The position numbers were made by a program, and so were the translations under genes. This document shows, in pieces, positions 17,356 to 50,181 of a stretch of DNA of 64,000 nt (the first letter of the stretch is position 1; each line of letters opens with the position of its first letter). This DNA is from Nitrospirales bacterium (GTDB lineage Bacteria > Nitrospirota > Nitrospiria > Nitrospirales > UBA8639): NCBI GenBank assembly GCA_965223185.1, contig OZ244988.1, positions 2,500,613-2,564,612 of the forward strand, given 5' to 3'. The notes below the pieces were generated by a model, which ran no database searches, was not told the origin of the DNA, and saw only the letters and a program-made list of their open reading frames with translations.

Positions 17356-19869
17356 TCACTCTTTGTCTTGGGTTGTGGTGGCGAGTTGAGCGGGAGCAGA
17401 AATTCGTGCTGCAAGGTCGTGAATCATACCCATATGTCGTTCGACATCGGAAAAATCACCCGATTTGGCCGCTAATTCCAATTCATTGGCTGGTTCGACA
17501 AAGACATCGAACCCGACCGTTCCTCCTGCGCCTTTGAGCCAATGGGCCAATTGGGCCAATTCTTTAAAGTCTTTCGCTCGGCAGGCTTCATTCATGGCCG
17601 GTAACTGGTTTTCCAATCGTCCTAAAAAACGGGCAATCACCTTGGCAAACTTGGGATTGTCATGGCCAAGCCTGGAATAAATGGGGCCTGGTTCTGTTTG
17701 TGTAGTGGATGTCGAAGGCAGAGTATTTGATGTGGTTGAATCGGAAACGGGTTCTATGATTGGTTCGGCCCGAAGCCATGAAGCTAATTTTGAGAAAAAC
17801 AAGTCCAGATGAATGGGTTTGGGGATAAAATCGGTGTATCCGGCTATCTCAAGTTCTTCGCCGAATCCTTTCATGGCGTTCGCTGTTAAGGCAATAATCG
17901 GTGTCTGCACACCACGGTCACGTATATTTTTTGTGGCGCTCAAGCCGTCCATTTTTGGCATTTGCACATCCATAAGAATCAGATCGTAATCCGTGGTGGT
18001 GGCCATCTCAATCGCCATCAAACCGTTGTCTGCTTCGTCAATGGTGAGCCCGTATCCTTCCAAGACCGCCCGTACGAATTCTCGATTTTCTGGGCCGTCA
18101 TCGACCACCAAAATGTGAGATTTTGGAAAGATCCAGGTGGAAGATTCTTGAATTTCAGTTTTTTCAGGGGTAGTCATTGCCAGCTCTGGAGTGATCCAGG
18201 CCACACCGTCTGCGCTACCGCCATCGAGCGTGACCATGAATCGGCTACCTTTCCCCCGCTGACTGTCCACGGTGATATCGCCACCCATCGCACGAGCAAA
18301 TTTTCGACTGATTGACAACCCCAGACCGGTTCCTCCGAATTTTCGAGTCGTTGAGGCATCGGCCTGCACGAAATCTTCGAAAATGCGACCAAGAGCATCT
18401 TCATTCATTCCCACTCCGGTGTCTGTAATATCGACATGAAATTGGATGGCTTTCTGTTGGGTTTGTTCGGCATATGCACTCACCGTGACGCCTCCCAATT
18501 CAGTGAATTTGATGGCATTGCCGATAAGGTTCGTGACAATCTGACGGAGTTTTCCCGGATCATTGGTGATGATTTCAGGGACGGTGTCTTGGATCTGAAG
18601 ATCAAGGGTAATGCCTTTCTTTCCTGCCTGAAATCCCAGGACTTTGACGACTTCCAAAATCACTAAATAAGGATTGAAGGGGATTCGTTCGATATCAAGA
18701 CGTCCGGATTCCACTTTGGAAAGGTCTAAGATATCGTTAATCAGTTCTAGAAGGTGGGTTCCGCTGGAATGGATAATTTCTAAATGATTGAGGGTTTGTT
18801 GTGGATCACGGCCGAAATCGCGCTTCAGTAATTCCGTGAACCCTAAGATGGCGTTCATCGGGGTACGGATTTCATGGCTCATGTTGGCCAGAAAGACACT
18901 CTTAGCCTGATTGGCCGATTCAGCGGCTTCCTTGGCGCTCAATAATTCAATTTCGGCTTCCTCCAATTGAGTGATATCATCAAAACTCACGAGGACTCCA
19001 ACATATTGAGCTCCACTTCCCAGAATTGGGGAACAATTGATCATGAATGTCAGTCGAGTATCGGTAGAAATAGTCAGACGAATTCGCTGATTTTTTTGAG
19101 CTTCGCCTGTGATCAAAGCCACATGCCAAGGAAAAGAGTTTGGTTCTAACGATTGTCCTTCCGACATAGACCACTGAAAATCGTTCACTCGTCGACCTAA
19201 CAAAGCTTCCGGTGACGTGTTTAAGTCCTCGGCAAAGGCTCGGTTAGCGAGCAAAATCTGTTCTTTGTTGTCCAACACCAAAAGTCCTTCTGCCATGGTA
19301 TCTAAGGCTGATCGCACTCGTTCAGGAACGGCTTGTGAGGGGTCAAGTTGTTTCAGCATTTTCCCCAAGTACAGATAAAAGCCAAGAAAGCAAAGGAGAC
19401 CGACGAACATAAGCAATTGCGTATGTTGCCCGGTAAGCATCGCTATCCAGTTTTCATCCACCAAAGGACTGAATCGTAATTCAACACGCCCCCATTTACT
19501 CTGCCCTTCCCATATAGAGACCGACAGTTGCGTATTGCCTGAGAGATCAGATTCGTCATCGACCCAATGGGCCTCATGATCGCCAATGGTCACGAGTCGT
19601 TGCCCGGATTCGATGCGAATGGCTGCGGACAGGAGATCCTTATTCCGATTTACAACCAATCCCAGGACACCTTCAAGGCGTTCAAGATCTTTTTGAGTGA
19701 TAAAGATGGAACTATTGGCAGCGATGGCTTCTGCCAAGGCAGCACGACCCTCTCGGGCAGGTGTGATGGGATCAGGCAAAAGGCCGAATAGGCTGGCGGT
19801 CAAAAGAACGCTGGTCAAAAGGCTTACTAATCCAATAGTCAGCCGGGATTTTGTGGAAAGAAAAGTCAT
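17356..19869 (-). CDS. Hybrid sensor histidine kinase: TM, periplasmic domain, TM, PAS, HisKA, HATPase, REC and Hpt
   Basis: H-box MSHEIRTPMNAILGF, N/G boxes NLIGNAIKFT and DTGVGM..GGTGLGLSI, REC LILMDVQMPKMDG, Hpt HWLKGAGGTVG. The ATG overlaps the stop of the upstream giant gene (ATGA at 19866-19869). Confidence 0.9.
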   Translation of the reverse strand: MTFLSTKSRLTIGLVSLLTSVLLTASLFGLLPDPITPAREGRAALAEAIAANSSIFITQKDLERLEGVLGLVVNRNKDLLSAAIRIESGQRLVTIGDHEAHWVDDESDLSGNTQLSVSIWEGQSKWGRVELRFSPLVDENWIAMLTGQHTQLLMFVGLLCFLGFYLYLGKMLKQLDPSQAVPERVRSALDTMAEGLLVLDNKEQILLANRAFAEDLNTSPEALLGRRVNDFQWSMSEGQSLEPNSFPWHVALITGEAQKNQRIRLTISTDTRLTFMINCSPILGSGAQYVGVLVSFDDITQLEEAEIELLSAKEAAESANQAKSVFLANMSHEIRTPMNAILGFTELLKRDFGRDPQQTLNHLEIIHSSGTHLLELINDILDLSKVESGRLDIERIPFNPYLVILEVVKVLGFQAGKKGITLDLQIQDTVPEIITNDPGKLRQIVTNLIGNAIKFTELGGVTVSAYAEQTQQKAIQFHVDITDTGVGMNEDALGRIFEDFVQADASTTRKFGGTGLGLSISRKFARAMGGDITVDSQRGKGSRFMVTLDGGSADGVAWITPELAMTTPEKTEIQESSTWIFPKSHILVVDDGPENREFVRAVLEGYGLTIDEADNGLMAIEMATTTDYDLILMDVQMPKMDGLSATKNIRDRGVQTPIIALTANAMKGFGEELEIAGYTDFIPKPIHLDLFFSKLASWLRAEPIIEPVSDSTTSNTLPSTSTTQTEPGPIYSRLGHDNPKFAKVIARFLGRLENQLPAMNEACRAKDFKELAQLAHWLKGAGGTVGFDVFVEPANELELAAKSGDFSDVERHMGMIHDLAARISAPAQLATTTQDKE

Positions 19870-22800
19870 GGGGAAGGTCGCCGAAACCAGGGGAATAACC
19901 GTGTCCTGAATCTGGCCGAGGTTAATTTTCCGGAGAGCTCGGTTGAATGGCGTTGCTCTTCGAACATAGACTCCAGGGAATCATCTTCTAAGTCTGTGCG
20001 TTCACTCTTGCGAATCTTTTTTGATGGTGATCCCAATACCAGAAGAGGATTCACCAATTGCCAAGCCGGGACTGACGATAAGAGGGCCGTGAGAAGGACA
20101 CCACTTCGCAACAGCCAGATCACATAGCCAATGGACAATCCAGTCGTTGCAGCTATACTGGATGCCAAATAAGTTTTTTCGGTGGCCACGACATTATTGA
20201 GTGAGTCTCTGGCTTGATCGAGTTCTCTGAGAAATCCCGAAGCGTTCCCCAGGAGCGCTTGAACCTCGCTTTTCACATTCGAAAGACTTAATGGCTTTAT
20301 CAATAGGTCAAACACGCCGCTCATGCTGGTCCCATTGCCTTTATGGCTTTTCTGTGATTCAAGCAAAGACAAATTTTGTTCGATTGGTTTCCGAAGAGCA
20401 TCCTCTTTTTCGGGCCCATCGGTCGTCGTGGTCGAAGTGGATTTCGAAGAAAATCCTTGAGATGTAGAGATGAAATTCATGCCAATTACAGGCTGTTCTT
20501 CATCAGGAATCCCCTCGTCTGGAGGCGGCGAAGGGGAGGGAGATGGACTTGGTGAAGGAGGAAGAACAATGACCGGAGCATTGGTCACCGTGACGGCAAG
20601 GGCTTGGGTGTCGATCAATGTGCCATCCGAGGCTTGTACGATCACGTCATAGACATTGTCGGCGCCGACATCGTTTGGCGCGCCAAGGTTTGGCGCGCTG
20701 ATGAAAGACAGAGCCCCTGTATTCGGGTCGATAGAGAACAAGGCTGCATCGGCTCCGCCGGTTATGCTGTAGGTAAGGGTTGCACCTTCTGCATCAAAGG
20801 CATTGACCGTGGTGACAGCGGTATTACCTTCGATGACCGTAGCGGTACCAGTGGTCCCACCTCCATTGGACGTAATGATGGGGGCATCGTTTTGTGGCGT
20901 AATCGTGAGGCTCACGGTCACGGTATTTGAAGTAGCTCCGGCCAGGTCCCTGATCGTATAGGTAAAGCTGTCGGAAAGAGTTTCAGATCCATTGTGGGTG
21001 TATTCCACAGTCCCATTGGTATTGATGTTTGTGATAGCGCCATTGGTGGGCCCTGAGACAATGGTGATACTGGTCAAATCCAATCCGTCGTCAGCATCAG
21101 TATCATTAATTGCCAGATCAAGGGTATTCACAGACCCCTCATTTACGGTCAAAGCATCAGCAACTGCGGTTGGCGGATCATTAACTGGATTGACATTGAT
21201 AGTTGTTCTGGCTGGAGCACTGGGGGCCGTACCGTCGTTGACGGTAACGTCAATCAATCGGTTCCCTCCGGTAGGCGTGGCGGCATCTGTATGTTGGTAT
21301 TGAATTGCCCTGATCAGCGTTTCTGTTTCAATTTCAGTAAAGGTTCCCCCGCCCTGTTTGGTGATAGTCATGGTGGCTGTGCCGGCTCCAGTGGTCAGCA
21401 CCACGCGATAATTCCCTCCACTGGTATTTTGTCCTGCCACCGCTGTGGCCAAGGCGAACACGTCTCCATCCAACAGGAGTGTTTCACTGTTACCATCCAA
21501 TAATCCGGTGATAGCCAGAGTGACGGTGGTAAAGGTGGGACTATCCAAATCGTTCAGGTCAGCATCTGAATCGGCAATGGCGGTGGGTGCGTCCCCTTCG
21601 GTGAACGTGAATTGATAATCATTGCCTGTGGCTCCTGAGCTATCGTTTAAGTCCAAATCGATAGTCGGGATGATCGATGAACTGGCTTCGTATGCTCCGA
21701 TATCCACATTGGCATCACGTGTAGCACCACGTTGATCTACGGTGGGAGCCCCCAAATTGGCACCGGCGTTGATGGCAGGACTTCCGCCCAAAAGGCTATG
21801 TGTCTGAGTTGGTCCGCCGTTGTCGGCCAAGGCCCCTAAAAGCGGGTCCATTCCGTCTAATGGATCTCCCAAACCGGCCGTCCCGTCGCTATCGATGTTA
21901 TTTCCCAGGGAGTTGAGTGTACTGCTGGCATTGCCGCCAGTATTAGAAGCCAAAATAGTGTTTCTGAGGATAGCCGATCCACCGCCGGCTTGATTAATCC
22001 CACCACCATTGCTGGCTGAGTTAAATGCGACTGTGGAGTTGGTCAACGTGACCGTCGATCGTGTGAAAATCCCGCCGCCATTGCTCGAAGCGGAATTTCC
22101 ACTTATGGTGGAATTCGTAACCTGGGTTACCCCTCCGGAACTCAGATTGAGTCCAGCACCCACGTTCGCGCTATTCCCCGAGACCGTGACCCGGTTAAGC
22201 TCTAATGGGCTAGACGTATCAAGGCCGCCACCTTGGGAACCTGCCGTGTTTCCGGTAATGGCCACGTCTCGAAGTGTTACTGTCCCTCCGCCTGATCGGA
22301 TTTGGATTCCTGCCCCTTGGGTGGCACTACCATTTTGAATGGTCAGATCCGAAATAGTGACTGTTTGACCATGAATATCAAGGACCCGATCGGATCCAAG
22401 TCCATCGATGATAGTGGTTTGGGCACCAGCTCCGGTGATGATGACCCCCTGACGAATGTCCAGATCTCCAGTTGCGCCCAAATCTTCTGAGGTTCCTGTC
22501 AACGACAGCGTATAAGTCCCAGCCGGGAGCATGATGGTATCCCCACCTGAGCCTGCGTTTACTTGAATGATGGCTTCGCGGAGCGAGGTCACTCCATCGC
22601 CACCATTAATCACGTCGGCGAAGGTATCGACAGTGATGACCGCCAGTTTCCCCACCCACTTTTCTTGTGTCTCAGCATTGACTGTGACTTGTGTCTCAAT
22701 CGTTCCTGTTCGATATTCCAGGTCCCAATTCCCGTGATATTGAGGGTTGCCGGTGTCATCGATACTGGCGGCGACATCAGTGCCGGTTAATTCAGCTAAG

Positions 22801-23585
22801 AGTGTGGCCGCCGCTTGGCCAATTTCGCCCTTGCCGAAATTGCAGCCGTAGATGAGGAAATCCGCATCATCTGTTAAGGCTTGGTTGATGATGGCGAGAT
22901 CATTGGCGTATTTCTCTTCCATGGATTTTTGAGTGAGAAGCCCTGTGCCTAACCGCAATTCACCTTGATTGCCATGCGAAATTATATGGATGGCGTCAAC
23001 GTCGGTGCGTTCGCTCAAAACTTCTGCAATTTGGTCGACGCCATCTCGCGTGGAATCCAGCAAAACGGCCTCAGCTCCGGAGTCTATTCCGAGTAGTAAG
23101 GTGTGGTAATCCTCGACATTGGTATCGATAAACACGATTTCTTTCCGATCGGAGAGAGGCGGCGTCACTGTCGACAATGCAGCGTAAAGGTCAATGTCGC
23201 CTATCAAAGGGTCTGAAGGGATTTGATCCTCAGCTCCGATTGCTGAAAAGTCTTGATCGAGCGTAGTCATATCTTGTGGGTCTTGTTGCTGGAGAACTTC
23301 GGCCCCGGTGACCAAGGCCGCACCGTCAAACATGATTCTCGGTTCAAGAGCCAGAAGTGTGCCGAGACCACTGGGCCGGGGAAGGGGATATGTTGCTTCG
23401 CCGCGATCGCGCTTGGAGATATGTGGACGGGTGGCCGCTCTTTGTCTTGTTCGATTATTCAAAAGGCGAGTTGATTGGTTGGGGAGAGTGTCTGTGGCTG
23501 ACCCATAAATAGGCCAAGTCGCACTCATCCCCAACAGGGCGATTACGACAGTATTCCCGCCTAGATACACGTATTCCCAGAGCAT
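19866..23585 (-). CDS. Large repetitive surface protein 1 (1239 aa): LEPRIMFDGA motif, DUF4347-like domain, SLREAI right-handed beta-helix, cadherin-like modules, Pro/Ser linker, C-terminal double-TM anchor
   Basis: The ATG at 23585 is preceded by GGAGGAA. Motifs: LLALEPRIMFDGAALVTGAEV; SDRKEIVFIDTNVEDYHTL...IHIISHGNQGELRLG (DUF4347-like); TSLREAIIQVNAG...DIGAYE (beta-helix / choice-of-anchor-Q-like); NDPPTAV and NDAPIITS cadherin-like modules; PPSPSPSPSPSPPP; TGLSIGYVIWLLRSGVLLTALLSSVPAWQLVNPLLVL. Confidence 0.9.
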   Translation of the reverse strand: MLWEYVYLGGNTVVIALLGMSATWPIYGSATDTLPNQSTRLLNNRTRQRAATRPHISKRDRGEATYPLPRPSGLGTLLALEPRIMFDGAALVTGAEVLQQQDPQDMTTLDQDFSAIGAEDQIPSDPLIGDIDLYAALSTVTPPLSDRKEIVFIDTNVEDYHTLLLGIDSGAEAVLLDSTRDGVDQIAEVLSERTDVDAIHIISHGNQGELRLGTGLLTQKSMEEKYANDLAIINQALTDDADFLIYGCNFGKGEIGQAAATLLAELTGTDVAASIDDTGNPQYHGNWDLEYRTGTIETQVTVNAETQEKWVGKLAVITVDTFADVINGGDGVTSLREAIIQVNAGSGGDTIMLPAGTYTLSLTGTSEDLGATGDLDIRQGVIITGAGAQTTIIDGLGSDRVLDIHGQTVTISDLTIQNGSATQGAGIQIRSGGGTVTLRDVAITGNTAGSQGGGLDTSSPLELNRVTVSGNSANVGAGLNLSSGGVTQVTNSTISGNSASSNGGGIFTRSTVTLTNSTVAFNSASNGGGINQAGGGSAILRNTILASNTGGNASSTLNSLGNNIDSDGTAGLGDPLDGMDPLLGALADNGGPTQTHSLLGGSPAINAGANLGAPTVDQRGATRDANVDIGAYEASSSIIPTIDLDLNDSSGATGNDYQFTFTEGDAPTAIADSDADLNDLDSPTFTTVTLAITGLLDGNSETLLLDGDVFALATAVAGQNTSGGNYRVVLTTGAGTATMTITKQGGGTFTEIETETLIRAIQYQHTDAATPTGGNRLIDVTVNDGTAPSAPARTTINVNPVNDPPTAVADALTVNEGSVNTLDLAINDTDADDGLDLTSITIVSGPTNGAITNINTNGTVEYTHNGSETLSDSFTYTIRDLAGATSNTVTVSLTITPQNDAPIITSNGGGTTGTATVIEGNTAVTTVNAFDAEGATLTYSITGGADAALFSIDPNTGALSFISAPNLGAPNDVGADNVYDVIVQASDGTLIDTQALAVTVTNAPVIVLPPSPSPSPSPSPPPDEGIPDEEQPVIGMNFISTSQGFSSKSTSTTTTDGPEKEDALRKPIEQNLSLLESQKSHKGNGTSMSGVFDLLIKPLSLSNVKSEVQALLGNASGFLRELDQARDSLNNVVATEKTYLASSIAATTGLSIGYVIWLLRSGVLLTALLSSVPAWQLVNPLLVLGSPSKKIRKSERTDLEDDSLESMFEEQRHSTELSGKLTSARFRTRLFPWFRRPSP

Positions 23586-30806: not shown

Positions 30807-30858
30807 GTAACCTTTACAAACAGCCCCCTGATCAGTGAGAAGCAAGCTTATTCATTTC

Positions 30859-31149: not shown

Positions 31150-31314
31150 CAGAAACCATATCCTGTAGATTTGGATTACACATATGCGCTCCTAAAGGGA
31201 ACAACAATTTAGTAGAGGCCGTTTCAAATTGCCAGGCTTGGAAGAAGTAAGGAAGGAAGAGGGAAGTGTGAGGAAAAGATGAGAGACGTAGGAATATTTT
31301 TTCAGTCCCCAGGC

Positions 31315-42700: not shown

Positions 42701-45700
42701 TTCCAAGCGGGAAGTGATTCCGCCGAAGATATCTTGAGTCTTCGTAACCAGGGCACGGGCACTGGCCAGATTGGGGTTTCCGGTTCGACCGTCACGTATC
42801 AAGGCGTCACGATTGGGACCTTTACTGGTGGCACAGGCGGCACCGATTTGGTCATTACGTTCAATGCTAGTGCTGATGCGACAGCCGTTAGCGCCCTAAT
42901 CCAAAATATCACCTATGAGAATACCGACACGGACAACCCAACGACAGGCGCCCGAATGGTGCGCTATGTATTGACCGATGGTGATGGCGGCACCAGTGCC
43001 AACTACGACACCACCATCACGGTGAGCAACGTGAACGACGCGCCGGTGAACACGGTGCCGGGGGCGCAAGCCGCGACCGAGGATACGCCCTTGGCCATCA
43101 GCGGCGTGAGTGTCAGTGACGTCGATGACAACCTGAGCACGGTGCAACTGGCGGTGACCAACGGGACGGTGAATGTGACCTTGAGTGGCGGGGCCACCAT
43201 CAGTGCGGGGGCCAACGGCAGCAATACCCTGACGCTCTCCGGCAGCCAAGCCGACATCAACGCCACGTTAGCCAGCTTGAGCTACCAAGGGACCTTGAAC
43301 TATACGGGCAGCGACACGCTGACCATCACGAGCACGGATGCCAATAGTGCCACGGATGTGGATACGGTGGCCATCACGGTGAGCAACGTGAACGACGCGC
43401 CGGTGAACACGGTGCCGGGGGCGCAAGCCGCGACCGAGGATACGCCCTTGGCCATCAGCGGCGTGAGTGTCAGTGACGTCGATGACAACCTGAGCACGGT
43501 GCAACTGGCGGTGACCAACGGGACGGTGAATGTGACCTTGAGTGGCGGGGCCACCATCAGTGCGGGGGCCAACGGCAGCAATACCCTGACGCTCTCCGGC
43601 AGCCAAGCCGACATCAACGCCACGTTAGCCAGCTTGAGCTACCAAGGGACCTTGAACTATACGGGCAGCGACACGCTGACCATCACGAGCACGGATGCCA
43701 ATAGTGCCACGGATGTGGATACGGTGGCCATCACGGTGAGCAACGTGAACGACGCGCCGGTGAACACGGTGCCGGGGGCGCAAGCCGCGACCGAGGATAC
43801 GCCCTTGGCCATCAGCGGCGTGAGTGTCAGTGACGTCGATGACAACCTGAGCACGGTGCAACTGGCGGTGACCAACGGGACGGTGAATGTGACCTTGAGT
43901 GGCGGGGCCACCATCAGTGCGGGGGCCAACGGCAGCAATACCCTGACGCTCTCCGGCAGCCAAGCCGACATCAACGCCACGTTAGCCAGCTTGAGCTACC
44001 AAGGGACCTTGAACTATACGGGCAGCGACACGCTGACCATCACGAGCACGGATGCCAATAGTGCCACGGATGTGGATACGGTGGCCATCACGGTGAGCAA
44101 CGTGAACGACGCGCCGGTGAACACGGTGCCGGGGGCGCAAGCCGCGACCGAGGATACGCCCTTGGCCATCAGCGGCGTGAGTGTCAGTGACGTCGATGAC
44201 AACCTGAGCACGGTGCAACTGGCGGTGACCAACGGGACGGTGAATGTGACCTTGAGTGGCGGGGCCACCATCAGTGCGGGGGCCAACGGCAGCAATACCC
44301 TGACGCTCTCCGGCAGCCAAGCCGACATCAACGCCACGTTAGCCAGCTTGAGCTACCAAGGGACCTTGAACTATACGGGCAGCGACACGCTGACCATCAC
44401 GAGCACGGATGCCAATAGTGCCACGGATGTGGATACGGTGGCCATCACGGTGAGCAACGTGAACGACGCGCCGGTGAACACGGTGCCGGGGGCGCAAGCC
44501 GCGACCGAGGATACGCCCTTGGCCATCAGCGGCGTGAGTGTCAGTGACGTCGATGACAACCTGAGCACGGTGCAACTGGCGGTGACCAACGGGACGGTGA
44601 ATGTGACCTTGAGTGGCGGGGCCACCATCAGTGCGGGGGCCAACGGCAGCAATACCCTGACGCTCTCCGGCAGCCAAGCCGACATCAACGCCACGTTAGC
44701 CAGCTTGAGCTACCAAGGGACCTTGAACTATACGGGCAGCGACACGCTGACCATCACGAGCACGGATGCCAATAGTGCCACGGATGTGGATACGGTGGCC
44801 ATCACGGTGAGCAACGTGAACGACGCGCCGGTGAACACGGTGCCGGGGGCGCAAGCCGCGACCGAGGATACGCCCTTGGCCATCAGCGGCGTGAGTGTCA
44901 GTGACGTCGATGACAACCTGAGCACGGTGCAACTGGCGGTGACCAACGGGACGGTGAATGTGACCTTGAGTGGCGGGGCCACCATCAGTGCGGGGGCCAA
45001 CGGCAGCAATACCCTGACGCTCTCCGGCAGCCAAGCCGACATCAACGCCACGTTAGCCAGCTTGAGCTACCAAGGGACCTTGAACTATACGGGCAGCGAC
45101 ACGCTGACCATCACGAGCACGGATGCCAATAGTGCCACGGATGTGGATACGGTGGCCATCACGGTGAGCAACGTGAACGACGCGCCGGTGAACACGGTGC
45201 CGGGGGCGCAAGCCGCGACCGAGGATACGCCCTTGGCCATCAGCGGCGTGAGTGTCAGTGACGTCGATGACAACCTGAGCACGGTGCAACTGGCGGTGAC
45301 CAACGGGACGGTGAATGTGACCTTGAGTGGCGGGGCCACCATCAGTGCGGGGGCCAACGGCAGCAATACCCTGACGCTCTCCGGCAGCCAAGCCGACATC
45401 AACGCCACGTTAGCCAGCTTGAGCTACCAAGGGACCTTGAACTATACGGGCAGCGACACGCTGACCATCACGAGCACGGATGCCAATAGTGCCACGGATG
45501 TGGATACGGTGGCCATCACGGTGAGCAACGTGAACGACGCGCCGGTGAACACGGTGCCGGGGGCGCAAGCCGCGACCGAGGATACGCCCTTGGCCATCAG
45601 CGGCGTGAGTGTCAGTGACGTCGATGACAACCTGAGCACGGTGCAACTGGCGGTGACCAACGGGACGGTGAATGTGACCTTGAGTGGCGGGGCCACCATC

Positions 45701-48664
45701 AGTGCGGGGGCCAACGGCAGCAATACCCTGACGCTCTCCGGCAGCCAAGCCGACATCAACGCCACGTTAGCCAGCTTGAGCTACCAAGGGACCTTGAACT
45801 ATACGGGCAGCGACACGCTGACCATCACGAGCACGGATGCCAATAGTGCCACGGATGTGGATACGGTGGCCATCACGGTGAGCAACGTGAACGACGCGCC
45901 GGTGAACACGGTGCCGGGGGCGCAAGCCGCGACCGAGGATACGCCCTTGGCCATCAGCGGCGTGAGTGTCAGTGACGTCGATGACAACCTGAGCACGGTG
46001 CAACTGGCGGTGACCAACGGGACGGTGAATGTGACCTTGAGTGGCGGGGCCACCATCAGTGCGGGGGCCAACGGCAGCAATACCCTGACGCTCTCCGGCA
46101 GCCAAGCCGACATCAACGCCACGTTAGCCAGCTTGAGCTACCAAGGGACCTTGAACTATACGGGCAGCGACACGCTGACCATCACGAGCACGGATGCCAA
46201 TAGTGCCACGGATGTGGATACGGTGGCCATCACGGTGAGCAACGTGAACGACGCGCCGGTGAACACGGTGCCGGGGGCGCAAGCCGCGACCGAGGATACG
46301 CCCTTGGCCATCAGCGGCGTGAGTGTCAGTGACGTCGATGACAACCTGAGCACGGTGCAACTGGCGGTGACCAACGGGACGGTGAATGTGACCTTGAGTG
46401 GCGGGGCCACCATCAGTGCGGGGGCCAACGGCAGCAATACCCTGACGCTCTCCGGCAGCCAAGCCGACATCAACGCCACGTTAGCCAGCTTGAGCTACCA
46501 AGGGACCTTGAACTATACGGGCAGCGACACGCTGACCATCACGAGCACGGATGCCAATAGTGCCACGGATGTGGATACGGTGGCCATCACGGTGAGCAAC
46601 GTGAACGACGCGCCGGTGAACACGGTGCCGGGGGCGCAAGCCGCGACCGAGGATACGCCCTTGGCCATCAGCGGCGTGAGTGTCAGTGACGTCGATGACA
46701 ACCTGAGCACGGTGCAACTGGCGGTGACCAACGGGACGGTGAATGTGACCTTGAGTGGCGGGGCCACCATCAGTGCGGGGGCCAACGGCAGCAATACCCT
46801 GACGCTCTCCGGCAGCCAAGCCGACATCAACGCCACGTTAGCCAGCTTGAGCTACCAAGGGACCTTGAACTATACGGGCAGCGACACGCTGACCATCACG
46901 AGCACGGATGCCAATAGTGCCACGGATGTGGATACGGTGGCCATCACGGTGAGCAACGTGAACGACGCGCCGGTGAACACGGTGCCGGGGGCGCAAGCCG
47001 CGACCGAGGATACGCCCTTGGCCATCAGCGGCGTGAGTGTCAGTGACGTCGATGACAACCTGAGCACGGTGCAACTGGCGGTGACCAACGGGACGGTGAA
47101 TGTGACCTTGAGTGGCGGGGCCACCATCAGTGCGGGGGCCAACGGCAGCAATACCCTGACGCTCTCCGGCAGCCAAGCCGACATCAACGCCACGTTAGCC
47201 AGCTTGAGCTACCAAGGGACCTTGAACTATACGGGCAGCGACACGCTGACCATCACGAGCACGGATGCCAATAGTGCCACGGATGTGGATACGGTGGCCA
47301 TCACGGTGAGCAACGTGAACGACGCGCCGGTGGCTGCCAACGATTCATATACGACTTCAGAAGATATTCCGATTACTACCACGCTTGGTACAGGCGTATT
47401 GGCTAATGATTTCGATTTGGATGGAGATACCCTAACCGTTACTACTACGCCGATTGTGGGCGTGTCGAACGGGACGTTAGTTTTGAATGCGGATGGCACC
47501 TTCACTTACACCCCCAATAGCGGGTGGAGTGGGGTGGATACCTTCACCTATCAGGTGACGGATGGGAATGGAGGTAATGCGCAAGCGACAGTGACACTTA
47601 CGGTCGTTAGTGTGAATGACGCGCCGGTGATCACGAGTCATGGGGGCGGTGGGAATGCGGCCCTTTCGATGGCGGAAAATTTGATGGGGGTGACCACCAT
47701 GGCTGCGACGGATGCTGATGGTGATCCGTTGACCTATAGCATTGTTGGTGGGGTCGATGCCGCACGATTTATGATTGATGCGAACAGTGGGGTTCTGAGT
47801 TTCGTCGGGGCACCTGACTTTGAAAATCCTACAGACCTGGGTGGCGATAATGTGTATGACGTACAGATCCAAGTGAGTGATGGACAAGGGGGAACCGACA
47901 TTCAAGCCCTGTCAATCACAGTGACCGACGTGTTGGAAGGGGGAGGTGCGCCACTTCCTACGCCTGATCCTACTCCTGAACCAGAACCTGAGCCAACGCC
48001 TGAGCCTACCCCCGAACCTGAGCCCGATCCTGTCTTGTCGGGTGCCCCCTCTCCCGTTTCGAATCCTATGGAGACCGGTATGGGGTTATTAGATGAAAGT
48101 GACATGGGCAGCCGTGGTATTGAGGATGAGCCTCATCAAATAGGGCACCAGGAGCCGGTCAATGTTTTAGATTTACCCCCATTGCTGCGCCCAGCTTCCT
48201 GGGCGACGACATCTGATCAAATTCGTGCGTATTATCCTGATCCTTTGGATATGAACAACACGGGGCTCTCTCCGGAAGTTCTTCAGCAGTTAACCCAATT
48301 TTCCGATGAATTAGGGCAGACTATGGAGGAACAGGTCGATGATCGTTCCTGGTTCATCAATACGGTCAAGGGCGCTGGACTTTCTTTATCAGCCGGCTTT
48401 GTGGCCTGGATGGTGCGAGGAGGGGCTTTAGTAGCTGGGTTGATGGCCTCGCTTCCCGCATGGAGACATTTTGACCCGGTGCCTATTTTGAGTATGGATA
48501 AAAAAGGTAAAGAAGACTGGACGCGGCGGGTGACAGAAGCCACCAAGTTGGAAGCGCATGAACATCAAGGCTTAGAAAAGATTTTAGGAGGATCTCAATC
48601 GAAGGGTCCGGAGTCTCTCTCTCAAAATCCTGTTGACCCACCCGCATCCCCCCCTCTCCCATGA
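33767..48664 (+). CDS. Giant repetitive surface protein 2 (about 4965 aa): Lys-rich N-terminus, LEPRIMFDGA motif, DUF4347-like domain, four LamG/ConA-like modules, cadherin-like modules, a long right-handed beta-helix, at least 15 NDAPVN-type 119-aa repeats (12 identical), Pro/Thr/Glu linker, C-terminal double-TM anchor
   Basis: A single uninterrupted 14.9-kb frame. I prefer the ATG at 33767 (AAGGAA 8 nt upstream) over the adjacent GTG at 33764. Motifs: LVALEPRIMFDGAALATGAEV; SDRKEIVFIDTAVDDYQTL...IHIISHGDPGELQLG; four W.FD.DATDSSGN.YDGTL ... DD/N.(K/R)IY.RALS modules (LamG_3-like); SLREAIIAANN followed by many N.I.GNYIGTDVTGT.DLGN coils; NDAPVNTVPGAQ repeats; PTPDPTPEPEPEPTPEPTPEPEPDP; GLSLSAGFVAWMVRGGALVAGLMASLPAWRHFDPVPIL. 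No GGxGxD RTX repeats were seen. Confidence 0.93.
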   Translation: MNKMMCKPATLDAVKEKKADTAKTKSGTPKKNKAKAQQEEAEPVSGIGLLVALEPRIMFDGAALATGAEVIQDTTTQDQTEIPGIDGETATDTTSTDSSDSEALWSSGLSLSAPSDRKEIVFIDTAVDDYQTLMEGIDPNAEVILLDPTRDGIEQIAEILGDRSDIDAVHIISHGDPGELQLGTGTLSFASMQEEYADELATISQALSQEADLLVYGCNFGEGGSGTEAANLLAALTGADVAASSDLTGAEALGGDWDLEMQTGTIETDVIVDEQAQEVFTGVLDITTGLVADWTFDADATDSSGNSYDGTLTGDASIDTADATDIVGEGKLSLDGTGDYVDLDAHISAFSGLTEGTIAGWVKVTDSGENILFGISDSGDSLSLAKFGIEAGGQVKWLIGEGGGIDVLAYSNQTVNDGAWHHIAITVNSSGTTMYIDGQVASVTYSGGSASSTNFFSTINDIDAADIGRSLRGGVSEAEFNGLADNVKIYDRALSLGDIQELVAQAPTSYGEIGHWTFDADATDSSGNNYDGTLTNGAIIDTTDTTDQVGGAKLSLDGTNDYVDLSSHVSNFSSLNEGTISGWINTTGTYETIFSISSTADANSYATLFVGASGYLTFEVYENGSPILAVYNGNGDTINDGTWHHVSISMSATGNSLYIDGQLIAPGDLIYDTGSASTSAFFNDVSGLDAMAVGRNENSSGGRWYTSGLIDDVRVHNRALSTAVIAQLAQEAPVANDDTATTTAGTPVTIDVKSNDTDLDSETITVLDVGNPTNGIVVNNEDGTVTYTANGNYTGSDSFSYLTADLDDTISYWRLDGDATDAVGSNDGTITGTTTVEGAYGDALSFDEVDDKVVISDFSYGNEFSLSFKIKIDDNSGSSFQYIYSHGDINSANSLNVFLGETSSGASNLLRTVIRDTNDTLENSALDFDVSSIIGDGQWHTYTLTVANGVGSKVYLDGVLKNTDTRGGEAFDPGTDLYLGARQDLDANRYFGGSLDSVQLFNRALSESEVEDTHTGGNSLGTVNVTVTTDSAPVNSVPGSQTTNEDTTLTFNTANSNLISITDDAGDTLVVTLSVNNGTATLSGTSGLTFTTGDGTADATMTFSGTVEDINTALDGLQYDPTTDYSGSDTLTLTSYDQILYSLDFDANLQGYYQFDSGDPGNDSSPGGTLDGTLNGDAAVITDGTRGDVLSLDGTGDYVEIAGTLSNPTNVTLSAWVKYSSAPANGGEVISIGNDIALRVDDWTQGVTGFFYDGTTHQFIGSSVSLADNNWHHIAFTFDDGANTQSLYIDGTLVASGNFTSSITYTGWFPQTTIGTHADLGDSSFDFSGLIDDARIYDRALSASEIQGMASAPVTASDTDTVALTVTSVNDDPVISSDGGGATANINVAENTTAVTTVTSTDVDGGTAIYSISGGLDAAKFSINSSTGELVFQAAPDYETPTDSNGDNVYEVIVLVSDGNGGTDTQTINVTVTDVANTLTVTTTADNNDSGIVAGDGNYDIEWLNANLGADSSISLREAIIAANNTTGTDTISFNISDPLVSGAHTIDVLSALPDITDSIIIDGTTEPDFAGTPIIELDGSSAGAGVDGLRLISGSDGSTIRGLVINQFSSQGIEINNSDGNTIAGNYIGTDVTGTVDLGNGSAGIYLFSAQNNTIGGTTAADRNLISGNQGSGILRQGSNGGNLIQGNYIGTDVTGTLDLGNTQNGIAFAGSGADTIGGSVAGAGNVISGNNMSGISIGVGADGVTIQGNIIGLNAAGTGIIANTGDGIALSSDNNQVGGTTAAARNIISGNTSDGIALDGDNNIVQGNYIGTDITGTVDLGNTDDGIDISGATNTIGGTTAGARNIISGNDQDGIEIGNATATGNIVQGNYIGTDVTGTLDLGNSDDGIQIFNGATFNTIGGTTASARNVISGNDGRGIDIFDAATTNNSILGNYIGLNAAGTADLGNTLEGIQIDTNAAGNTIGGAVAGAGNVISGNDAGGIIIGTGADNTTIQGNTIGLNAAGTGIVANTGHGITINANNTQIGGTTALARNVISGNSQDGIYVSSASGTTIEGNYIGTDVTGTVDLGNSRYGIYLLSATNTIIGGSVVGARNVIAGNTNSGIRDQSSSGTTIQGNYIGVDSTGTTAMGNSQGIQVWSSTNGTIGGSGANEGNVIGGNTNQGILFYGSSGYTAQGNYIGTDATGTVDLGNGGHGIVFSSTASNFVIGGTSAGEGNVIAFNALDGISAPSTASDISILGNQIYSNTGLGIDLVGGTEDGAGVTANDAGDADTGANGLQNYPVLTAVNTTGSSVSITGSLNSTASTTFRIEFYASAAADGSGYGEAERYLGYATVTTDGSGNCTMNLTESWAVASGEYVTATATVITDAGQVGVDDALAYGNTSEFSQNVVANTGPVNTVPGAQVVNEDTVLAISGISVADSNSNLSTVQLSVTNGALTVTLSGGATISAGTNGTSTLTISGTQADINATLASLTYQGDLNFNGSDTLTILSTDAGALTDTDTVDITVNAVNDAPVNTVPGAQVVLEDTALNITGISVNDVDGNLSTVQLSVTNGTLNVTLSGAATISAGANGTNTLTLSGSQADINATLASLTYQGTLNYVGSDTLTVLSTDTNSATDSDTVSITVNQDNDAPVVTASGGATSYTEQATATVIDNALTLVDPDGFDGTDPSDQYVGVVQITGNYEAADILGFTNTSKIQGNLSGDTLTLTVIGGQTATVAEFEAALRTVTFYSGSDTPSELDRTITFSFDDGVDSSNSSTKTVQVTAVNDQAIADLNGADGGGNNFSTTFMEGSGALNVTDTDATLSDVDHSTYDSLGINLSGFVDGTNEKITIAGYTFTFGTAETVVRTVGATDFEIDFDGSGFSIQKNISGEMPEADLQTLLRGITYENISENPTIGNRTIDFIPQDGDALVGQTSTSTITVAATNDAPVITNLGGDALAYTEGDGAQVEQSADAAVSDVDSTNFDTGTLTVSFQAGSDSAEDILSLRNQGTGTGQIGVSGSTVTYQGVTIGTFTGGTGGTDLVITFNASADATAVSALIQNITYENTDTDNPTTGARMVRYVLTDGDGGTSANYDTTITVSNVNDAPVNTVPGAQAATEDTPLAISGVSVSDVDDNLSTVQLAVTNGTVNVTLSGGATISAGANGSNTLTLSGSQADINATLASLSYQGTLNYTGSDTLTITSTDANSATDVDTVAITVSNVNDAPVNTVPGAQAATEDTPLAISGVSVSDVDDNLSTVQLAVTNGTVNVTLSGGATISAGANGSNTLTLSGSQADINATLASLSYQGTLNYTGSDTLTITSTDANSATDVDTVAITVSNVNDAPVNTVPGAQAATEDTPLAISGVSVSDVDDNLSTVQLAVTNGTVNVTLSGGATISAGANGSNTLTLSGSQADINATLASLSYQGTLNYTGSDTLTITSTDANSATDVDTVAITVSNVNDAPVNTVPGAQAATEDTPLAISGVSVSDVDDNLSTVQLAVTNGTVNVTLSGGATISAGANGSNTLTLSGSQADINATLASLSYQGTLNYTGSDTLTITSTDANSATDVDTVAITVSNVNDAPVNTVPGAQAATEDTPLAISGVSVSDVDDNLSTVQLAVTNGTVNVTLSGGATISAGANGSNTLTLSGSQADINATLASLSYQGTLNYTGSDTLTITSTDANSATDVDTVAITVSNVNDAPVNTVPGAQAATEDTPLAISGVSVSDVDDNLSTVQLAVTNGTVNVTLSGGATISAGANGSNTLTLSGSQADINATLASLSYQGTLNYTGSDTLTITSTDANSATDVDTVAITVSNVNDAPVNTVPGAQAATEDTPLAISGVSVSDVDDNLSTVQLAVTNGTVNVTLSGGATISAGANGSNTLTLSGSQADINATLASLSYQGTLNYTGSDTLTITSTDANSATDVDTVAITVSNVNDAPVNTVPGAQAATEDTPLAISGVSVSDVDDNLSTVQLAVTNGTVNVTLSGGATISAGANGSNTLTLSGSQADINATLASLSYQGTLNYTGSDTLTITSTDANSATDVDTVAITVSNVNDAPVNTVPGAQAATEDTPLAISGVSVSDVDDNLSTVQLAVTNGTVNVTLSGGATISAGANGSNTLTLSGSQADINATLASLSYQGTLNYTGSDTLTITSTDANSATDVDTVAITVSNVNDAPVNTVPGAQAATEDTPLAISGVSVSDVDDNLSTVQLAVTNGTVNVTLSGGATISAGANGSNTLTLSGSQADINATLASLSYQGTLNYTGSDTLTITSTDANSATDVDTVAITVSNVNDAPVNTVPGAQAATEDTPLAISGVSVSDVDDNLSTVQLAVTNGTVNVTLSGGATISAGANGSNTLTLSGSQADINATLASLSYQGTLNYTGSDTLTITSTDANSATDVDTVAITVSNVNDAPVNTVPGAQAATEDTPLAISGVSVSDVDDNLSTVQLAVTNGTVNVTLSGGATISAGANGSNTLTLSGSQADINATLASLSYQGTLNYTGSDTLTITSTDANSATDVDTVAITVSNVNDAPVAANDSYTTSEDIPITTTLGTGVLANDFDLDGDTLTVTTTPIVGVSNGTLVLNADGTFTYTPNSGWSGVDTFTYQVTDGNGGNAQATVTLTVVSVNDAPVITSHGGGGNAALSMAENLMGVTTMAATDADGDPLTYSIVGGVDAARFMIDANSGVLSFVGAPDFENPTDLGGDNVYDVQIQVSDGQGGTDIQALSITVTDVLEGGGAPLPTPDPTPEPEPEPTPEPTPEPEPDPVLSGAPSPVSNPMETGMGLLDESDMGSRGIEDEPHQIGHQEPVNVLDLPPLLRPASWATTSDQIRAYYPDPLDMNNTGLSPEVLQQLTQFSDELGQTMEEQVDDRSWFINTVKGAGLSLSAGFVAWMVRGGALVAGLMASLPAWRHFDPVPILSMDKKGKEDWTRRVTEATKLEAHEHQGLEKILGGSQSKGPESLSQNPVDPPASPPLP
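38590..40500 (+). repeat. Degenerate in-frame coil repeats of the parallel beta-helix region (about 22-aa coils in roughly 65-aa super-repeats)
   Basis: The protein shows recurring I.GNYIGTDVTGT.DLGN...GI.......N.IGG......RN.ISGN...GI blocks. The DNA copies are clearly diverged. Confidence 0.7.
40960..41670 (+). repeat. Two diverged copies of the NDAPVN-type 119-aa repeat, older paralogues of the amplified unit
   Basis: GPVNTVPGAQVVNEDTVLAISGISVADSNSNLSTVQLSVTNGALTVTLSGG... and NDAPVNTVPGAQVVLEDTALNITGISVNDVDGNLSTVQLSVTNGTLNVTLSGA... align along their whole length with the amplified unit but differ at many nucleotide positions. Confidence 0.85.
43021..47304 (+). repeat. 12 head-to-tail, apparently identical copies of a 357-bp (119-codon) in-frame tandem repeat
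   Basis: Unit starts fall every 357 nt: 43021, 43378, 43735, 44092, 44449, 44806, 45163, 45520, 45877, 46234, 46591 and 46948. The sense translation and two antisense ORF series (112 aa and 107 aa) are letter-identical in every copy. Partial identity extends to about 43012 and 47331. Confidence 0.97.
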
Positions 48665-50181
48665 ACCGTTCCACTCCCTTGCTTTGGATCAGCTTTGGAC
48701 TGGTCTCTCTCACTCTGAGTATTTTGCTCATGAGTGATCTGGCCGTGGATTTAGTCCCTAATCAAGCTAAAGAAATTTTTGAATACCGGCAAAAATACAG
48801 TGAAGCGTTGGCTGTTCAATATTCCCTACTGGCGGAAAATGGGGATAGCCGAGCTATTCAGGAGGCCTTTGACCTTTTAATTGAACGGAATGATGACATC
48901 CTATCTGCTTCTGTGATTTTAGCCAATGGTGAGACCTTGGCTGTTTCTGGTCGACACCATCAACTCTGGAAGCAACCTTCAGGAGACTCGTCCACCCCCG
49001 ATCATATTCAGGTCCCAATTTATAATAGCCGCGAGCGGTGGGGAACGGTTCAATTACGATTTCGATCTCTTGAGAATAAAGGGTGGCTCGATTGGTTGAG
49101 GGATCCATGGATTCAGTTTTTGGGTCTGGTCGTGGGGTCTGGGTTTATGGGTTATTTTTTGTATATGAAACGCACATTACATCAACTGGATCCCAGCTCA
49201 GTAGTTCCTTTACGTGTGAAAGCGGCATTTGATGTGCTGACAGAAAGTGTGGTGCTGCTCGATAATGGTGAACGGATTGTTCTTGCTAATCGAGCTTTTG
49301 GAGGTGTGGTCGGAAAGAATCCTAATGAGCTCGTTGGTACACGACTTGATGAATATCACTGGAATTCGGTTTCTCCCGCTCCACTCATGACCATCTTTCC
49401 GTGGAAGACGGCGCGCAAGGAAAAATGCGTGGAATTGGATTGTCCTATGAGCCTCACCGACGTTTCGGGAAAAGTGTTAAAGTTTCGGGTGAATTGTACG
49501 CCAATTCTTAATGATCGCGAACTTGTCCAAGGTGTGTTGGTTTCCTTTGATGATGTGACCAGGTTGGAAGAAACGATTTTGGAACTTGAATCATCCAAAA
49601 TGGAAATGGAAAGTCTCGCAATGCGGGATCCGCTTACGGGCATTTTCAATCGACGTGCTTTATTTGAGGCGTTTGAGGATCTTCATCAAGTGAGTATTGC
49701 AGAGTTGGGGGATTATGGCTGCATCATGTGTGATATTGATCATTTTAAATCGTTTAACGATCGTTTTGGTCATGCGGTTGGGGATCAGGTGATTCAAGTC
49801 GTTGGCAAAATTCTTTCCACCACGATTCGGCCAACCGATATCATTGGTCGATACGGAGGTGAAGAGTTTTGCATTTTATTACCTGGTCAAGGTCCGGAGG
49901 AGACGGCCATTGCCGCTGAACGTCTACGTCTTGCTATTTCGGCTCGTGCCAGCCAAGCCATACGCACGACAGGAGATAACCGTATTACCATGAGCTTTGG
50001 AACGTCCTGTTTATCTTTGGGCGCCTCTGACCCTTTGGAATTGGTCGATCAGGCGGATAAGGCTTTGTATGTTGCAAAACAAGCTGGCCGGAACCAGGTG
50101 GGACAATGGACTTCCGAAGGTCCCCAAGCCGGTCTTCCTATTACATTAGAAGTAGAGAGTTTTGCAGGGTCAGTCGACTAG
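48661..50181 (+). CDS. Membrane sensor diguanylate cyclase: TM, periplasmic domain, TM, PAS and GGDEF
   Basis: Active-site RYGGEEF with an RPTD (RxxD I-site) five residues upstream, plus DIDHFKSFND. The first ~310 aa are paralogous to the N-terminus of the hybrid kinase at 17356-19869. The ATG overlaps the giant gene stop (ATGA at 48661-48664). Confidence 0.9.
   Translation: MNRSTPLLWISFGLVSLTLSILLMSDLAVDLVPNQAKEIFEYRQKYSEALAVQYSLLAENGDSRAIQEAFDLLIERNDDILSASVILANGETLAVSGRHHQLWKQPSGDSSTPDHIQVPIYNSRERWGTVQLRFRSLENKGWLDWLRDPWIQFLGLVVGSGFMGYFLYMKRTLHQLDPSSVVPLRVKAAFDVLTESVVLLDNGERIVLANRAFGGVVGKNPNELVGTRLDEYHWNSVSPAPLMTIFPWKTARKEKCVELDCPMSLTDVSGKVLKFRVNCTPILNDRELVQGVLVSFDDVTRLEETILELESSKMEMESLAMRDPLTGIFNRRALFEAFEDLHQVSIAELGDYGCIMCDIDHFKSFNDRFGHAVGDQVIQVVGKILSTTIRPTDIIGRYGGEEFCILLPGQGPEETAIAAERLRLAISARASQAIRTTGDNRITMSFGTSCLSLGASDPLELVDQADKALYVAKQAGRNQVGQWTSEGPQAGLPITLEVESFAGSVD

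Follow-up and report, generated by a model that had tools for sequence, protein, structure and literature searches.

The closest described relative of the system presented here is a locus defined by comparative genomics in 2015 (Kamneva, Poudel and Ward, PLoS One, PMC4452313), in which GAF-HlyD, Peptidase_M50-HlyD and HlyD proteins (plus OEP) occur with a secondary SecA_DEAD ATPase and without an ATP-binding cassette (ABC) transporter. Its biological role was stated to be completely unknown, and the Nitrospirae are among the phyla listed. A related locus is described here from a 64,000-nucleotide stretch of a Nitrospirales bacterium (GenBank assembly GCA_965223185.1, contig OZ244988.1, positions 2,500,613 to 2,564,612), called the window throughout, in which such genes lie beside those of two giant adhesin-like proteins, each followed by a membrane sensor. 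The host chromosome measures 4.01 Mb, and its nearest relatives are marine or sediment Nitrospirales/Nitrospirota. To our knowledge, no route of export is known for the giant LEPR/DUF4347 proteins, which are encoded by some of the largest bacterial genes and occur commonly in environmental bacteria. Since 2015, the ABC-less M50/GAF/HlyD locus has been without a known cargo or role, and linking it with the giants gives each a testable function.

The window shares with the 2015 locus a GAF-containing and an M50-containing membrane fusion protein (MFP), a short HlyD/biotin-lipoyl MFP, the OEP protein found in some cases and the absence of an ABC transporter; moreover, SecA_DEAD loci of the published type hold distant relatives of the window giants. 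In contrast to the 2015 locus, the window has no SecA_DEAD gene. The 2015 paper names no substrate, DUF4347/LEPR giant, anchor, coupled sensor or REC-GGDEF-EAL protein, and it did not report the domain resembling a recognition element (RRE) of ribosomally synthesized and post-translationally modified peptides (RiPPs), or the intact site-2 protease (S2P) motifs, that are found here. The preliminary description of this stretch had proposed an undescribed surface-protein system; its ABC-less core has been known since 2015, whereas the cargo, anchor and sensors were not described there. A literature search found no paper linking the ABC-less locus with DUF4347/LEPR giants, the anchor or the sensors, and no functional study of the system. 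Judged by the searchable literature, the new elements are the system's cargo, its anchor and its coupling to sensors, together with the RRE-like domain and the clan-CD fold modelled for DUF4347 of the giants.

We think it probable, with due reserve, that the region encodes one conserved envelope machine for giant adhesin-like proteins, similar to a type I secretion system (T1SS) and built from TolC and MFP components without an ABC transporter. The gene linkage, the domain and fold assignments and the motif conservation on which this view draws are shown here. Pfam and NCBIfam searches were run on the eight main proteins of the window and 20 flanking open reading frames (28 main ORFs). The earlier map of the eight ORFs was reproduced to the base, and the earlier domain calls on all eight proteins were borne out. 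The same searches agreed with the earlier list of missing components, since ABC transporter, RTX, LapG, LapD-type and type V secretion (T5SS) domains are absent from the 28 main ORFs; in particular, none of these ORFs matches ABC_tran, ABC_membrane or HemolysinCabind/RTX. The features of the locus, which comprises two giant-plus-sensor modules and a predicted export operon, are as follows.

15320..17179, minus strand: response regulator with REC, degenerate GGDEF and EAL domains (Pfam Response_reg, GGDEF, EAL; motifs EALIR and DDFGTG)

17356..19869, minus strand: module 1 sensor, a hybrid histidine kinase of 837 amino acids (Pfam; H-box HEIRTP)

19866..23585, minus strand: giant G1 of module 1, 1239 amino acids (Pfam, NCBIfam, sequence)

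20031..20144, minus strand: C-terminal membrane anchor of G1, TGLSIGYVIWLLRSGVLLTALLSSVPAWQLVNPLLVL, then a basic cluster (sequence alignment, transmembrane segment)

22650..23138, minus strand: DUF4347 of G1 (residues 150-312), with HIISHG and YGCNFG (Pfam, E 5e-53; fold evidence from the G2 paralogue)

23316..23357, minus strand: leader motif of G1, LLALEPRIMFDGAA (residues 77-90; sequence, motif common to all 42 related N-termini)

24017..25636, plus strand: TolC-family outer-membrane factor (Pfam OEP twice, E 2e-30)

25633..26490, plus strand: short periplasmic adaptor MFP, 285 amino acids (HlyD_3; RND_mfp at 120 bits, above its cut-off)

26543..28006, plus strand: GAF-MFP (Pfam; transmembrane prediction)

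28000..30138, plus strand: fusion of an RRE-like domain, M50/S2P and MFP, called M50-MFP (Pfam Peptidase_M50, HlyD; AlphaFold2 and Foldseek)

33764/33767..48664, plus strand: giant G2 of module 2, 4966 amino acids (Pfam, NCBIfam, sequence)

33923..33955, plus strand: leader motif of G2, LEPRIMFDGAA (residues 54-64; sequence)

34124..34618, plus strand: DUF4347 of G2 (residues 121-285), with H171, H175-G176 and C219 (Pfam, E 6e-58; AlphaFold2; Foldseek)

43014..47332, plus strand: perfect tandem repeat, 357 bp x 12.1, of identical 119-residue cadherin-like units (sequence repeat analysis)

48374..48487, plus strand: C-terminal membrane anchor of G2, GLSLSAGFVAWMVRGGALVAGLMASLPAWRHFDPVPIL (sequence alignment, transmembrane segment)

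48661..50181, plus strand: module 2 sensor, PAS-GGDEF (Pfam; RxxD I-site and GGEEF)

The TolC-like, MFP, GAF-MFP and M50-MFP genes stand head-to-head with module 1, as the ORF map and Pfam confirm. The start of the short MFP gene overlaps the stop of the TolC gene, and the TolC-like factor is probably a lipoprotein, judging from the LSGC lipobox at its N-terminus. GAF-MFP has a cytoplasmic GAF domain (residues 68-202), one transmembrane segment (residues 223-241) and then a periplasmic MFP part. M50-MFP comprises an RRE-like N-domain (residues ~20-95), a polytopic M50/S2P region (residues ~140-440) and an MFP part (residues ~445-712). At both giant/sensor junctions the TGA stop of the giant overlaps the ATG of the sensor in the tetranucleotide ATGA, a 4-nt stop/start overlap that the preliminary description had already noted. 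That description had also called the giants and the sensors paralogous, correctly in both cases: the N-termini of the giants are 51% identical over 280 residues (E 1e-75) and their C-terminal ~100 residues align, including the transmembrane/PAW segment, while the first 310 residues of the sensors are 36% identical (E 6e-58).

G1 consists of a basic leader with LLALEPRIMFDGAA, DUF4347, a beta-helix/choice-of-anchor-Q region, cadherin-like domains, a proline-rich linker, the transmembrane anchor and a charged tail. In G2, the leader with its LEPR motif and DUF4347 are followed by four LamG domains, a beta-helix, ~17 cadherin-like/tandem-95 repeats, a PEPT-rich linker, the anchor and a tail. The giants thus carry domains of adhesin type (LamG, parallel beta-helix, cadherin-like/Big_9/tandem-95; Pfam, NCBIfam), and neither has a Sec-like signal peptide or RTX repeats according to Pfam, NCBIfam and the sequence. 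The 357-bp x 12.1 repeat of G2 has 100% identity between units and a GC content of ~0.60-0.63 against ~0.48 nearby; it is either a very recent expansion or gene conversion, or a copy-number artefact of assembly.

A scan of genomes with the M50-MFP alignment found relatives in at least 586 species, belonging to the Nitrospirota and the Alpha-, Beta-, Gamma- and Zetaproteobacteria, and 80 loci were fetched. The genes for TolC, MFP, GAF-MFP and M50-MFP keep their synteny in 66-80 of these 80 loci (TolC in 66/80, short MFP in 72/80, GAF-MFP in 74-76/80). A DUF4347 N-terminus lies within 10 kb in 37/80, usually as the next gene after M50-MFP; a DUF4347 giant occupies this position in essentially every Nitrospirota locus with enough flanking sequence, and also in several proteobacterial loci (L032, L058, L068, L074 and L075). 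A DUF4347 giant is also found divergently upstream, like module 1, in L001-L004 and L080, and L002, L003 and L004 have the full two-module layout of the window. Another 14 loci, all proteobacterial, have a cadherin/VCBS giant whose C-terminal end lies just ahead of TolC and whose N-terminus lies off the locus, and L078 holds a complete upstream giant with leader and DUF4347 in which the anchor is absent. The gene-neighbourhood survey called for in the preliminary description was therefore positive, with the components linked across phyla.

Eight anchor-less proteobacterial giants (L037, L045, L049, L051, L054, L057, L060 and L067), whose C-termini lie just upstream of TolC, have another C-terminal domain in common, marked by ...DG(S/T)PLP(D/G/E/S)W(I/M)(R/K)... 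~100 residues before the end. This domain may serve the same machine as an alternative means of retention or secretion.

The adjacency of giants and export genes could have arisen by coincidence, the TolC/MFP/M50 operon exporting a small peptide, RiPP or metabolite while the giants leave by a different route and the sensors are ordinary regulators in the vicinity. The closest curated relatives of the M50 domain are indeed RiPP leader proteases (daptide and YydH/LiaK), the window lacks a motor, and some M50-MFP loci have no giant. Against this, M50-MFP and DUF4347 giants adjoin one another across phyla and in different gene orders, so that coincidental adjacency was rejected. Conserved genes for RiPP precursors or their modification are missing from the related loci, and the coupling of giant to sensor through ATGA is a conserved feature. 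We regard independent function of these neighbours as very improbable.

The linkage of giant, anchor and sensor was followed further in metagenomes and protein clusters. The metagenome scan was made with alignment A5, which gave 34 loci; the broader alignment A4 was too divergent to seed it, and only 10 fragments came from a word-indexed search for homologues of the sensor input module. Of the metagenome loci, 29 have 400 bp or more of upstream sequence, and in 28 of these the sensor is immediately preceded, on the same strand, by the anchor, with an ATGA overlap of giant and sensor in 22 loci and gaps of at most 27 nt in the others. The sensor also directly follows the anchor in nine genome loci. 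Scanned in full with HMMER, 1.84 billion representatives yielded an anchor family of 4721 clusters at E ≤ 1e-3, or 1861 at the stricter E ≤ 1e-10. The top 150 matches all lie at the extreme C-terminus. Among the members listed, 27 of the 31 with 1000 amino acids or more carry DUF4347 and a LEPR-type leader at the N-terminus; relatives include the classical LEPRLLFSAD and LERRLLLSAD forms.

On the contigs of distant giants, seven of eight are followed by a hybrid kinase (PAS-HisKA-HATPase-REC-Hpt) and then by REC-GGDEF-EAL, which in L115 is split into REC-GGDEF plus EAL. Where the upstream region of these distant loci is visible, it holds GAF-MFP, an M50(-like) protein of ~715 residues, often SecA_DEAD, and a short MFP. 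Because the distant loci repeat the order of giant, hybrid kinase and REC-GGDEF-EAL, module 1 with its divergent operon is, on gene order, the canonical system, and module 2 a paralogue with cyclase output. In L121, an additional MFP-like gene and an additional DUF4347 gene start directly behind REC-GGDEF-EAL (18337-20437), so tandem multi-cargo arrangements also occur outside the Nitrospirales.

From these components, a route for the giants may be proposed. The machine would consist of the TolC lipoprotein and three periplasmic adaptors: the short MFP, GAF with a transmembrane segment and MFP, and the RRE-M50 protease-MFP fusion. Its cargo would be giants with a basic leader motif followed by caspase-like DUF4347. 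The RRE-like cytoplasmic domain of M50-MFP would bind the leader, and the intramembrane M50 site would remove or process it, by analogy with the leader-cleaving peptidase of bacteriocin/RiPP exporters. The giant polypeptide would then leave N-terminus first through the MFP/TolC duct, while the C-terminal transmembrane segment, with its positive-inside basic cluster, would stay in the inner membrane as a tether. The translationally coupled sensor, which has two transmembrane segments and would be made beside the anchor, would report the state of the anchor. We infer leader binding and cleavage, the direction of export, tethering and the contact between sensor and anchor; leader processing, exit through MFP/TolC, tether and sensor are favoured because of orientation, conservation and architecture.

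In 42/42 visible N-termini of related giants, the leader is basic and shows the pattern L-x-x-LE(P/S/Q)R(I/L)MFD(G/A)A. Proteins named LEPR-XLL by NCBI are very large and begin with a motif of the LEPR...LL(S/F) type; here the variant LEPRIMFDGAA is present, and no NCBIfam LEPR model scores on G1 or G2 at E ≤ 0.01. The protein that would handle this leader is M50-MFP, in which HELGH (206-210) and NLNPLLRFDG (300-309) are invariant in alignments of 48 homologues. It scores 39.3 bits with Pfam Peptidase_M50 (cut-off 27.2), and it has the HExxH and NxxPxxxxDG motifs, polytopic core and fold of an S2P. Its best NCBIfam match is daptide_HExxH, a RiPP leader protease family, at 156 bits, below the family's cut-off. 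An AlphaFold2 model of residues 1-430 (mean predicted local distance difference test, pLDDT, 81) matches the S2P of M. jannaschii (3b4r) with Foldseek probability 1.0. Searches of PDB sequences with M50-MFP and GAF-MFP gave no close solved relative, the only match being the MacA/MexA adaptor (E 5e-4).

In the same model, the N-domain of M50-MFP has a beta3-alpha3 arrangement (strands 22-25, 36-40 and 45-49; helices 51-58, 65-75 and 82-94). It matches the leader-bound RRE of TbiB1 (5v1v/5v1u) with Foldseek probability 1.0 and a TM score of 0.67 over 89 columns, at an E-value of 0.3, and the RRE of CteB with probability 0.84-0.87. A weak precomputed PqqD match exists in one distant M50-MFP homologue. 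An RRE-like fold of leader-peptide-binding type is thus probable, not proven, for this domain; the call follows the fold alone because PqqD is undetected at sequence level. An RRE-like binder, a leader-type protease and an MFP in one fusion would follow the logic of peptidase-containing exporters, which favours leader processing by M50-MFP. Orientation points the same way. S2P proteases cut type II (N-in) segments, and the leader is N-in while the anchor is N-out; therefore the leader is favoured as the M50 substrate.

The same leader could be read as an atypical Sec signal-anchor. SecYEG and SecA, or a SecA-like paralogue, would then move the giant, the C-terminal transmembrane segment would act as a stop-transfer sequence, MFP/TolC would capture the periplasmic N-terminus and pass it outward, and M50 would be a signal-peptide peptidase. 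This reading accommodates the basic n-region, short hydrophobic stretch and N-in orientation of the leader, the SecA-like ATPase with a preprotein-binding domain that relatives encode, and an operon with no evident inner-membrane channel protein. It also agrees with the clearing of signal peptides by S2P enzymes such as RseP and with the uptake of periplasmic substrates by MacAB-TolC. However, the hydrophobic core of the leader is ~8 residues long, is interrupted by E-P-R and lacks an AxA site; the cytoplasmic RRE-like domain argues for dedicated recognition of the leader; and the SecA-like gene is absent from both the window and L116. On balance, Sec-dependent movement of the giants appears unlikely to us.

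At the other end of the giants, the anchor has the conserved consensus GLSLSAGFVAW(L/M)(L/V)R(S/G)GxLLxxLLxSxPAW(R/Q)xx(D/N)P. It is preceded by an unstructured, Pro/Glu-rich linker of ~150-190 residues and followed by a basic cluster and a charged tail of 50-90 residues; no Pfam-A or NCBIfam model matches it. Applied to the giants, the positive-inside rule would put most of the protein outside and the tail in the cytoplasm. The M50 protease might be thought to cleave this anchor in regulated intramembrane proteolysis; the giant would leave the cell, a cytoplasmic tail would be set free or the sensor altered, and the sensors would report shedding. S2P substrates typically need helix-destabilising residues, and such residues of the anchor (R-S/G-G, S-x-P-A-W) are conserved across the family; the strict adjacency of sensor and anchor also fits. 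Yet the positive-inside rule makes the anchor a type I segment (N-out/C-in) and S2P enzymes cut those of type II, the proteobacterial anchor-less giants retain M50-MFP, and the RRE-like domain points to the N-terminal leader as the ligand. Anchor cleavage was accordingly ranked low as a conserved role of M50, and regulated release is quite improbable in our estimate. Across the surveyed loci, M50-MFP tracks LEPR/DUF4347 giants with or without an anchor while the sensor tracks the anchor only, a distribution that favours leader processing by M50-MFP together with sensing of the anchor.

The 310 residues common to the sensors comprise an input module with two transmembrane segments and a PAS domain, beyond which the proteins differ, with HisKA-HATPase-REC-Hpt in module 1 and GGDEF in module 2. 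In the module 1 sensor, Pfam assigns PAS, HisKA, HATPase, REC and Hpt domains after the input module (residues 1-180), whose transmembrane segments are residues 12-30 and 151-169; no Pfam-A or NCBIfam model matches the input module itself. The outputs vary among metagenome loci (GGDEF, plain histidine kinase, hybrid histidine kinase, GGDEF-EAL), while the input module is constant. The sensor belongs to the unit in 28/29 metagenome loci, but not universally: two anchor-type giants lack it, and in the surveyed loci it never accompanies anchor-less giants, whose proteobacterial versions keep M50-MFP.

Conserved synteny places the REC-GGDEF-EAL gene at 15320..17179 in module 1. Its EAL domain is intact and it has no GG[DE]EF motif, the mark of a degenerate GGDEF, so it is likely a phosphorylation-controlled phosphodiesterase of cyclic di-GMP (c-di-GMP) and the output of module 1. 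The module 2 sensor has a GGDEF domain of active type, with RxxD I-site and GGEEF intact. Because of these motifs, the modules plausibly push c-di-GMP in opposite directions: the hybrid histidine kinase of module 1 would act through REC-EAL to lower it, and the GGDEF domain of module 2 would raise it. Two genes with related domains lie just outside the modules, a partial EAL-HDOD protein (13647-14870, minus strand) beside module 1 and a stand-alone HDOD protein (51078-51944, minus strand) beside module 2; both may be further c-di-GMP-related accessories.

Directly behind the leader lies DUF4347, for which an AlphaFold2 model of the G2 domain was built on 42 homologues (pLDDT >90 across the domain). 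In Foldseek searches against PDB, its best match is Tce1 in the Hcp3-Tce1 complex (9qpe_G), followed by legumain and caspases 3, 6 and 7. In this fold a His-Gly and a Cys lie after consecutive strands, and both residues are present in G1 and G2; the Cys occurs in 41/42 homologues and the His before Gly in 28/42. The modelled DUF4347 of the giants is thus caspase/legumain-like, and because it matches Tce1, legumain and caspases, the giants would carry a clan-CD-like domain directly behind the leader. A 2026 paper (PMC13323088) describes Tce1 (PA0256), a DUF4347 effector of a type VI secretion system (T6SS), as a putative cysteine protease similar to the autoprocessing domain of TcdB/MARTX. It shares with the giants the DUF4347 fold, of which it is the top structural match, and a His...Cys pair after consecutive strands; the clan CD domains of caspases, legumain and the MARTX/TcdB cysteine protease domain have the fold modelled for G2. 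Tce1, however, is a small T6SS cargo, whereas the DUF4347 domains described here form the N-terminal part of giant envelope proteins.

What would drive export differs among loci. SecA_DEAD is present in the related loci L115, L117, L118 and L121, where this SecA-like ATPase, encoded in the operon, would be the motor. It is absent from L116, from the window and from the 80 M50-centred loci, in which all-against-all clustering found no conserved ATPase and an ABC half-transporter in only 3-4 loci. Because related loci hold SecA_DEAD and the window does not, the missing motor may be encoded elsewhere. Export here may thus depend on a SecA-like ATPase encoded elsewhere, on housekeeping Sec, or on folding and Ca2+-driven ratcheting outside the cell.

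A bolder form of the proposal would make these loci a distinct class of envelope secretion, in which RRE-S2P-MFP, GAF-MFP and short MFP work on TolC, and a SecA-like ATPase replaces the ABC transporter in many lineages. Such a machine would recognise and clip the LEPR leader, export its giants N-terminus first and keep them tethered across the entire envelope by the C-terminal inner-membrane anchor, and the co-translated sensor would set c-di-GMP. The anchor state read directly by the sensor would be load, occupancy or shedding, an arrangement amounting to a built-in surface or mechanical sensor. We put this forward tentatively, as possible but doubtful.

Several observations weigh against a single ABC-less export machine for the giants. 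No ATPase or other energy-coupling protein was found among the window ORFs with Pfam and NCBIfam, and we know of no M50 fold that serves as a protein-conducting channel. The RRE assignment is model-based, with weak Foldseek E-values (0.3-1.3), and Pfam PqqD has no match in 14 M50-MFP homologues even at E ≤ 1. Leader cleavage and N-terminus-first export are suggested by analogy alone. Some 20 M50-MFP loci show no giant in the flanking sequence available on either side, one of the eight distant anchor-type giants stands alone, and the two anchor-type giants without a sensor are the second copy in L003 and one in Ca. N. defluvii. Finally, the His of the 'SHG' motif in DUF4347 is replaced in 14/42 homologues, so protease activity of this domain is uncertain. 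The earlier proposal that the genes form one functional unit is nevertheless strongly supported by co-occurrence; that the unit exports, anchors and releases giants and couples them to signalling we still infer.

If the proposal is true, a leader-binding intramembrane protease replaces the ABC transporter in a secretion mechanism, an adhesin is held across both membranes in a new way, and its anchor is wired directly to c-di-GMP control. The system bears on biofilm formation by nitrifiers (Nitrospira grows as flocs and biofilms in marine systems as well as in water treatment) and on the sensing of attachment by bacteria.

The remainder of the window adds some context. A 3.6-kb insertion of toxin-antitoxin genes (30325-33067) stands between M50-MFP and G2. 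It includes a ParE toxin that a frameshift divides in two (30498-30617, 30657-30803), a nucleotidyltransferase of MNT type (30859-31149), PIN with MazE/AbrB (31315-31955) and PIN with Phd (32391-33067). The PIN/Phd pair is bracketed by two copies, 82% identical, of a 177-nt element with internal 40-nt sub-repeats (32088-32301, 33310-33486), which may be a small mobile element or one resembling repetitive extragenic palindromic (REP) sequences. Because the gap between M50-MFP and the giant is 0.1-1.7 kb in relatives, co-transcription of G2 with the TolC/MFP operon may be broken by this insertion. Scans for promoter and terminator consensus (15-34 kb) found site numbers fewer than or no more than in shuffled sequences and are therefore uninformative on operon structure. 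An Rfam scan of the whole window had no matches, and no c-di-GMP riboswitch precedes the giants. On the minus strand, succinate dehydrogenase/fumarate reductase subunits (flavoprotein, Fe-S, CCG-domain) cluster with citrate synthase (6555-11442), and a lipoyl-synthase-like radical SAM gene follows at 12551-13528; both are consistent with Nitrospira-type central metabolism. At the right edge of the window, an 858-residue protein matching the BREX BrxC/BrxD ATPase family (61309-63885, plus strand) suggests a phage-defence island.

The misfit with the T1SS, Lap, T5SS and sortase paradigms that the preliminary description had claimed is upheld by comparison with each. As in classical T1SS, an MFP and a TolC-family outer-membrane factor are present (OEP twice; HlyD_3/RND_mfp in three proteins), but the dedicated ABC motor is absent from the window and is not conserved in the 80 loci. 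T1SS substrates have an uncleaved C-terminal signal and usually RTX repeats, whereas the giants end in a transmembrane segment and charged tail and have no RTX. In type V secretion the substrate carries a C-terminal beta-barrel or a two-partner secretion (TPS) domain; Pfam finds no autotransporter barrel or TPS domain in the giants or their neighbours. The signals of sortase, exosortase and rhombosortase consist of a short motif, a transmembrane segment and a basic cluster at the extreme C-terminal end and have a cognate sorting enzyme; here a tail of 50-90 residues follows the transmembrane segment, no CTERM model matches, and a sortase-like enzyme is neither present in the window nor conserved in the loci.

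The Lap system of Pseudomonas (LapA, LapBCE, LapG, LapD) resembles the locus in its giant repeat adhesin in a TolC-type conduit, with a protease and c-di-GMP enzymes alongside. Its ABC transporter, RTX/C-terminal secretion signal, LapG (C93) and LapD are missing here: the window holds no LapG and no LapD-type HAMP-GGDEF-EAL protein, and the LapD model matches only generic GGDEF, at 45 bits against a cut-off of 1020. In contrast to Lap, the putative targeting element is N-terminal, retention would be by a C-terminal inner-membrane segment rather than an N-terminal plug, and signalling falls to sensors whose output is a kinase or a cyclase, not to a c-di-GMP receptor. RiPP systems have modification enzymes, which this locus does not. 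Compared with peptidase-containing ABC transporters (PCAT, C39-ABC) and the daptide and YydH-type M50 proteases, the predicted cargo is a protein of 1,200-5,000 residues rather than a peptide, and the protease is fused to an MFP rather than to an ABC protein. What the locus would share with PCAT and other RiPP exporters is the joining of a leader-recognition domain and a leader protease to the export apparatus.

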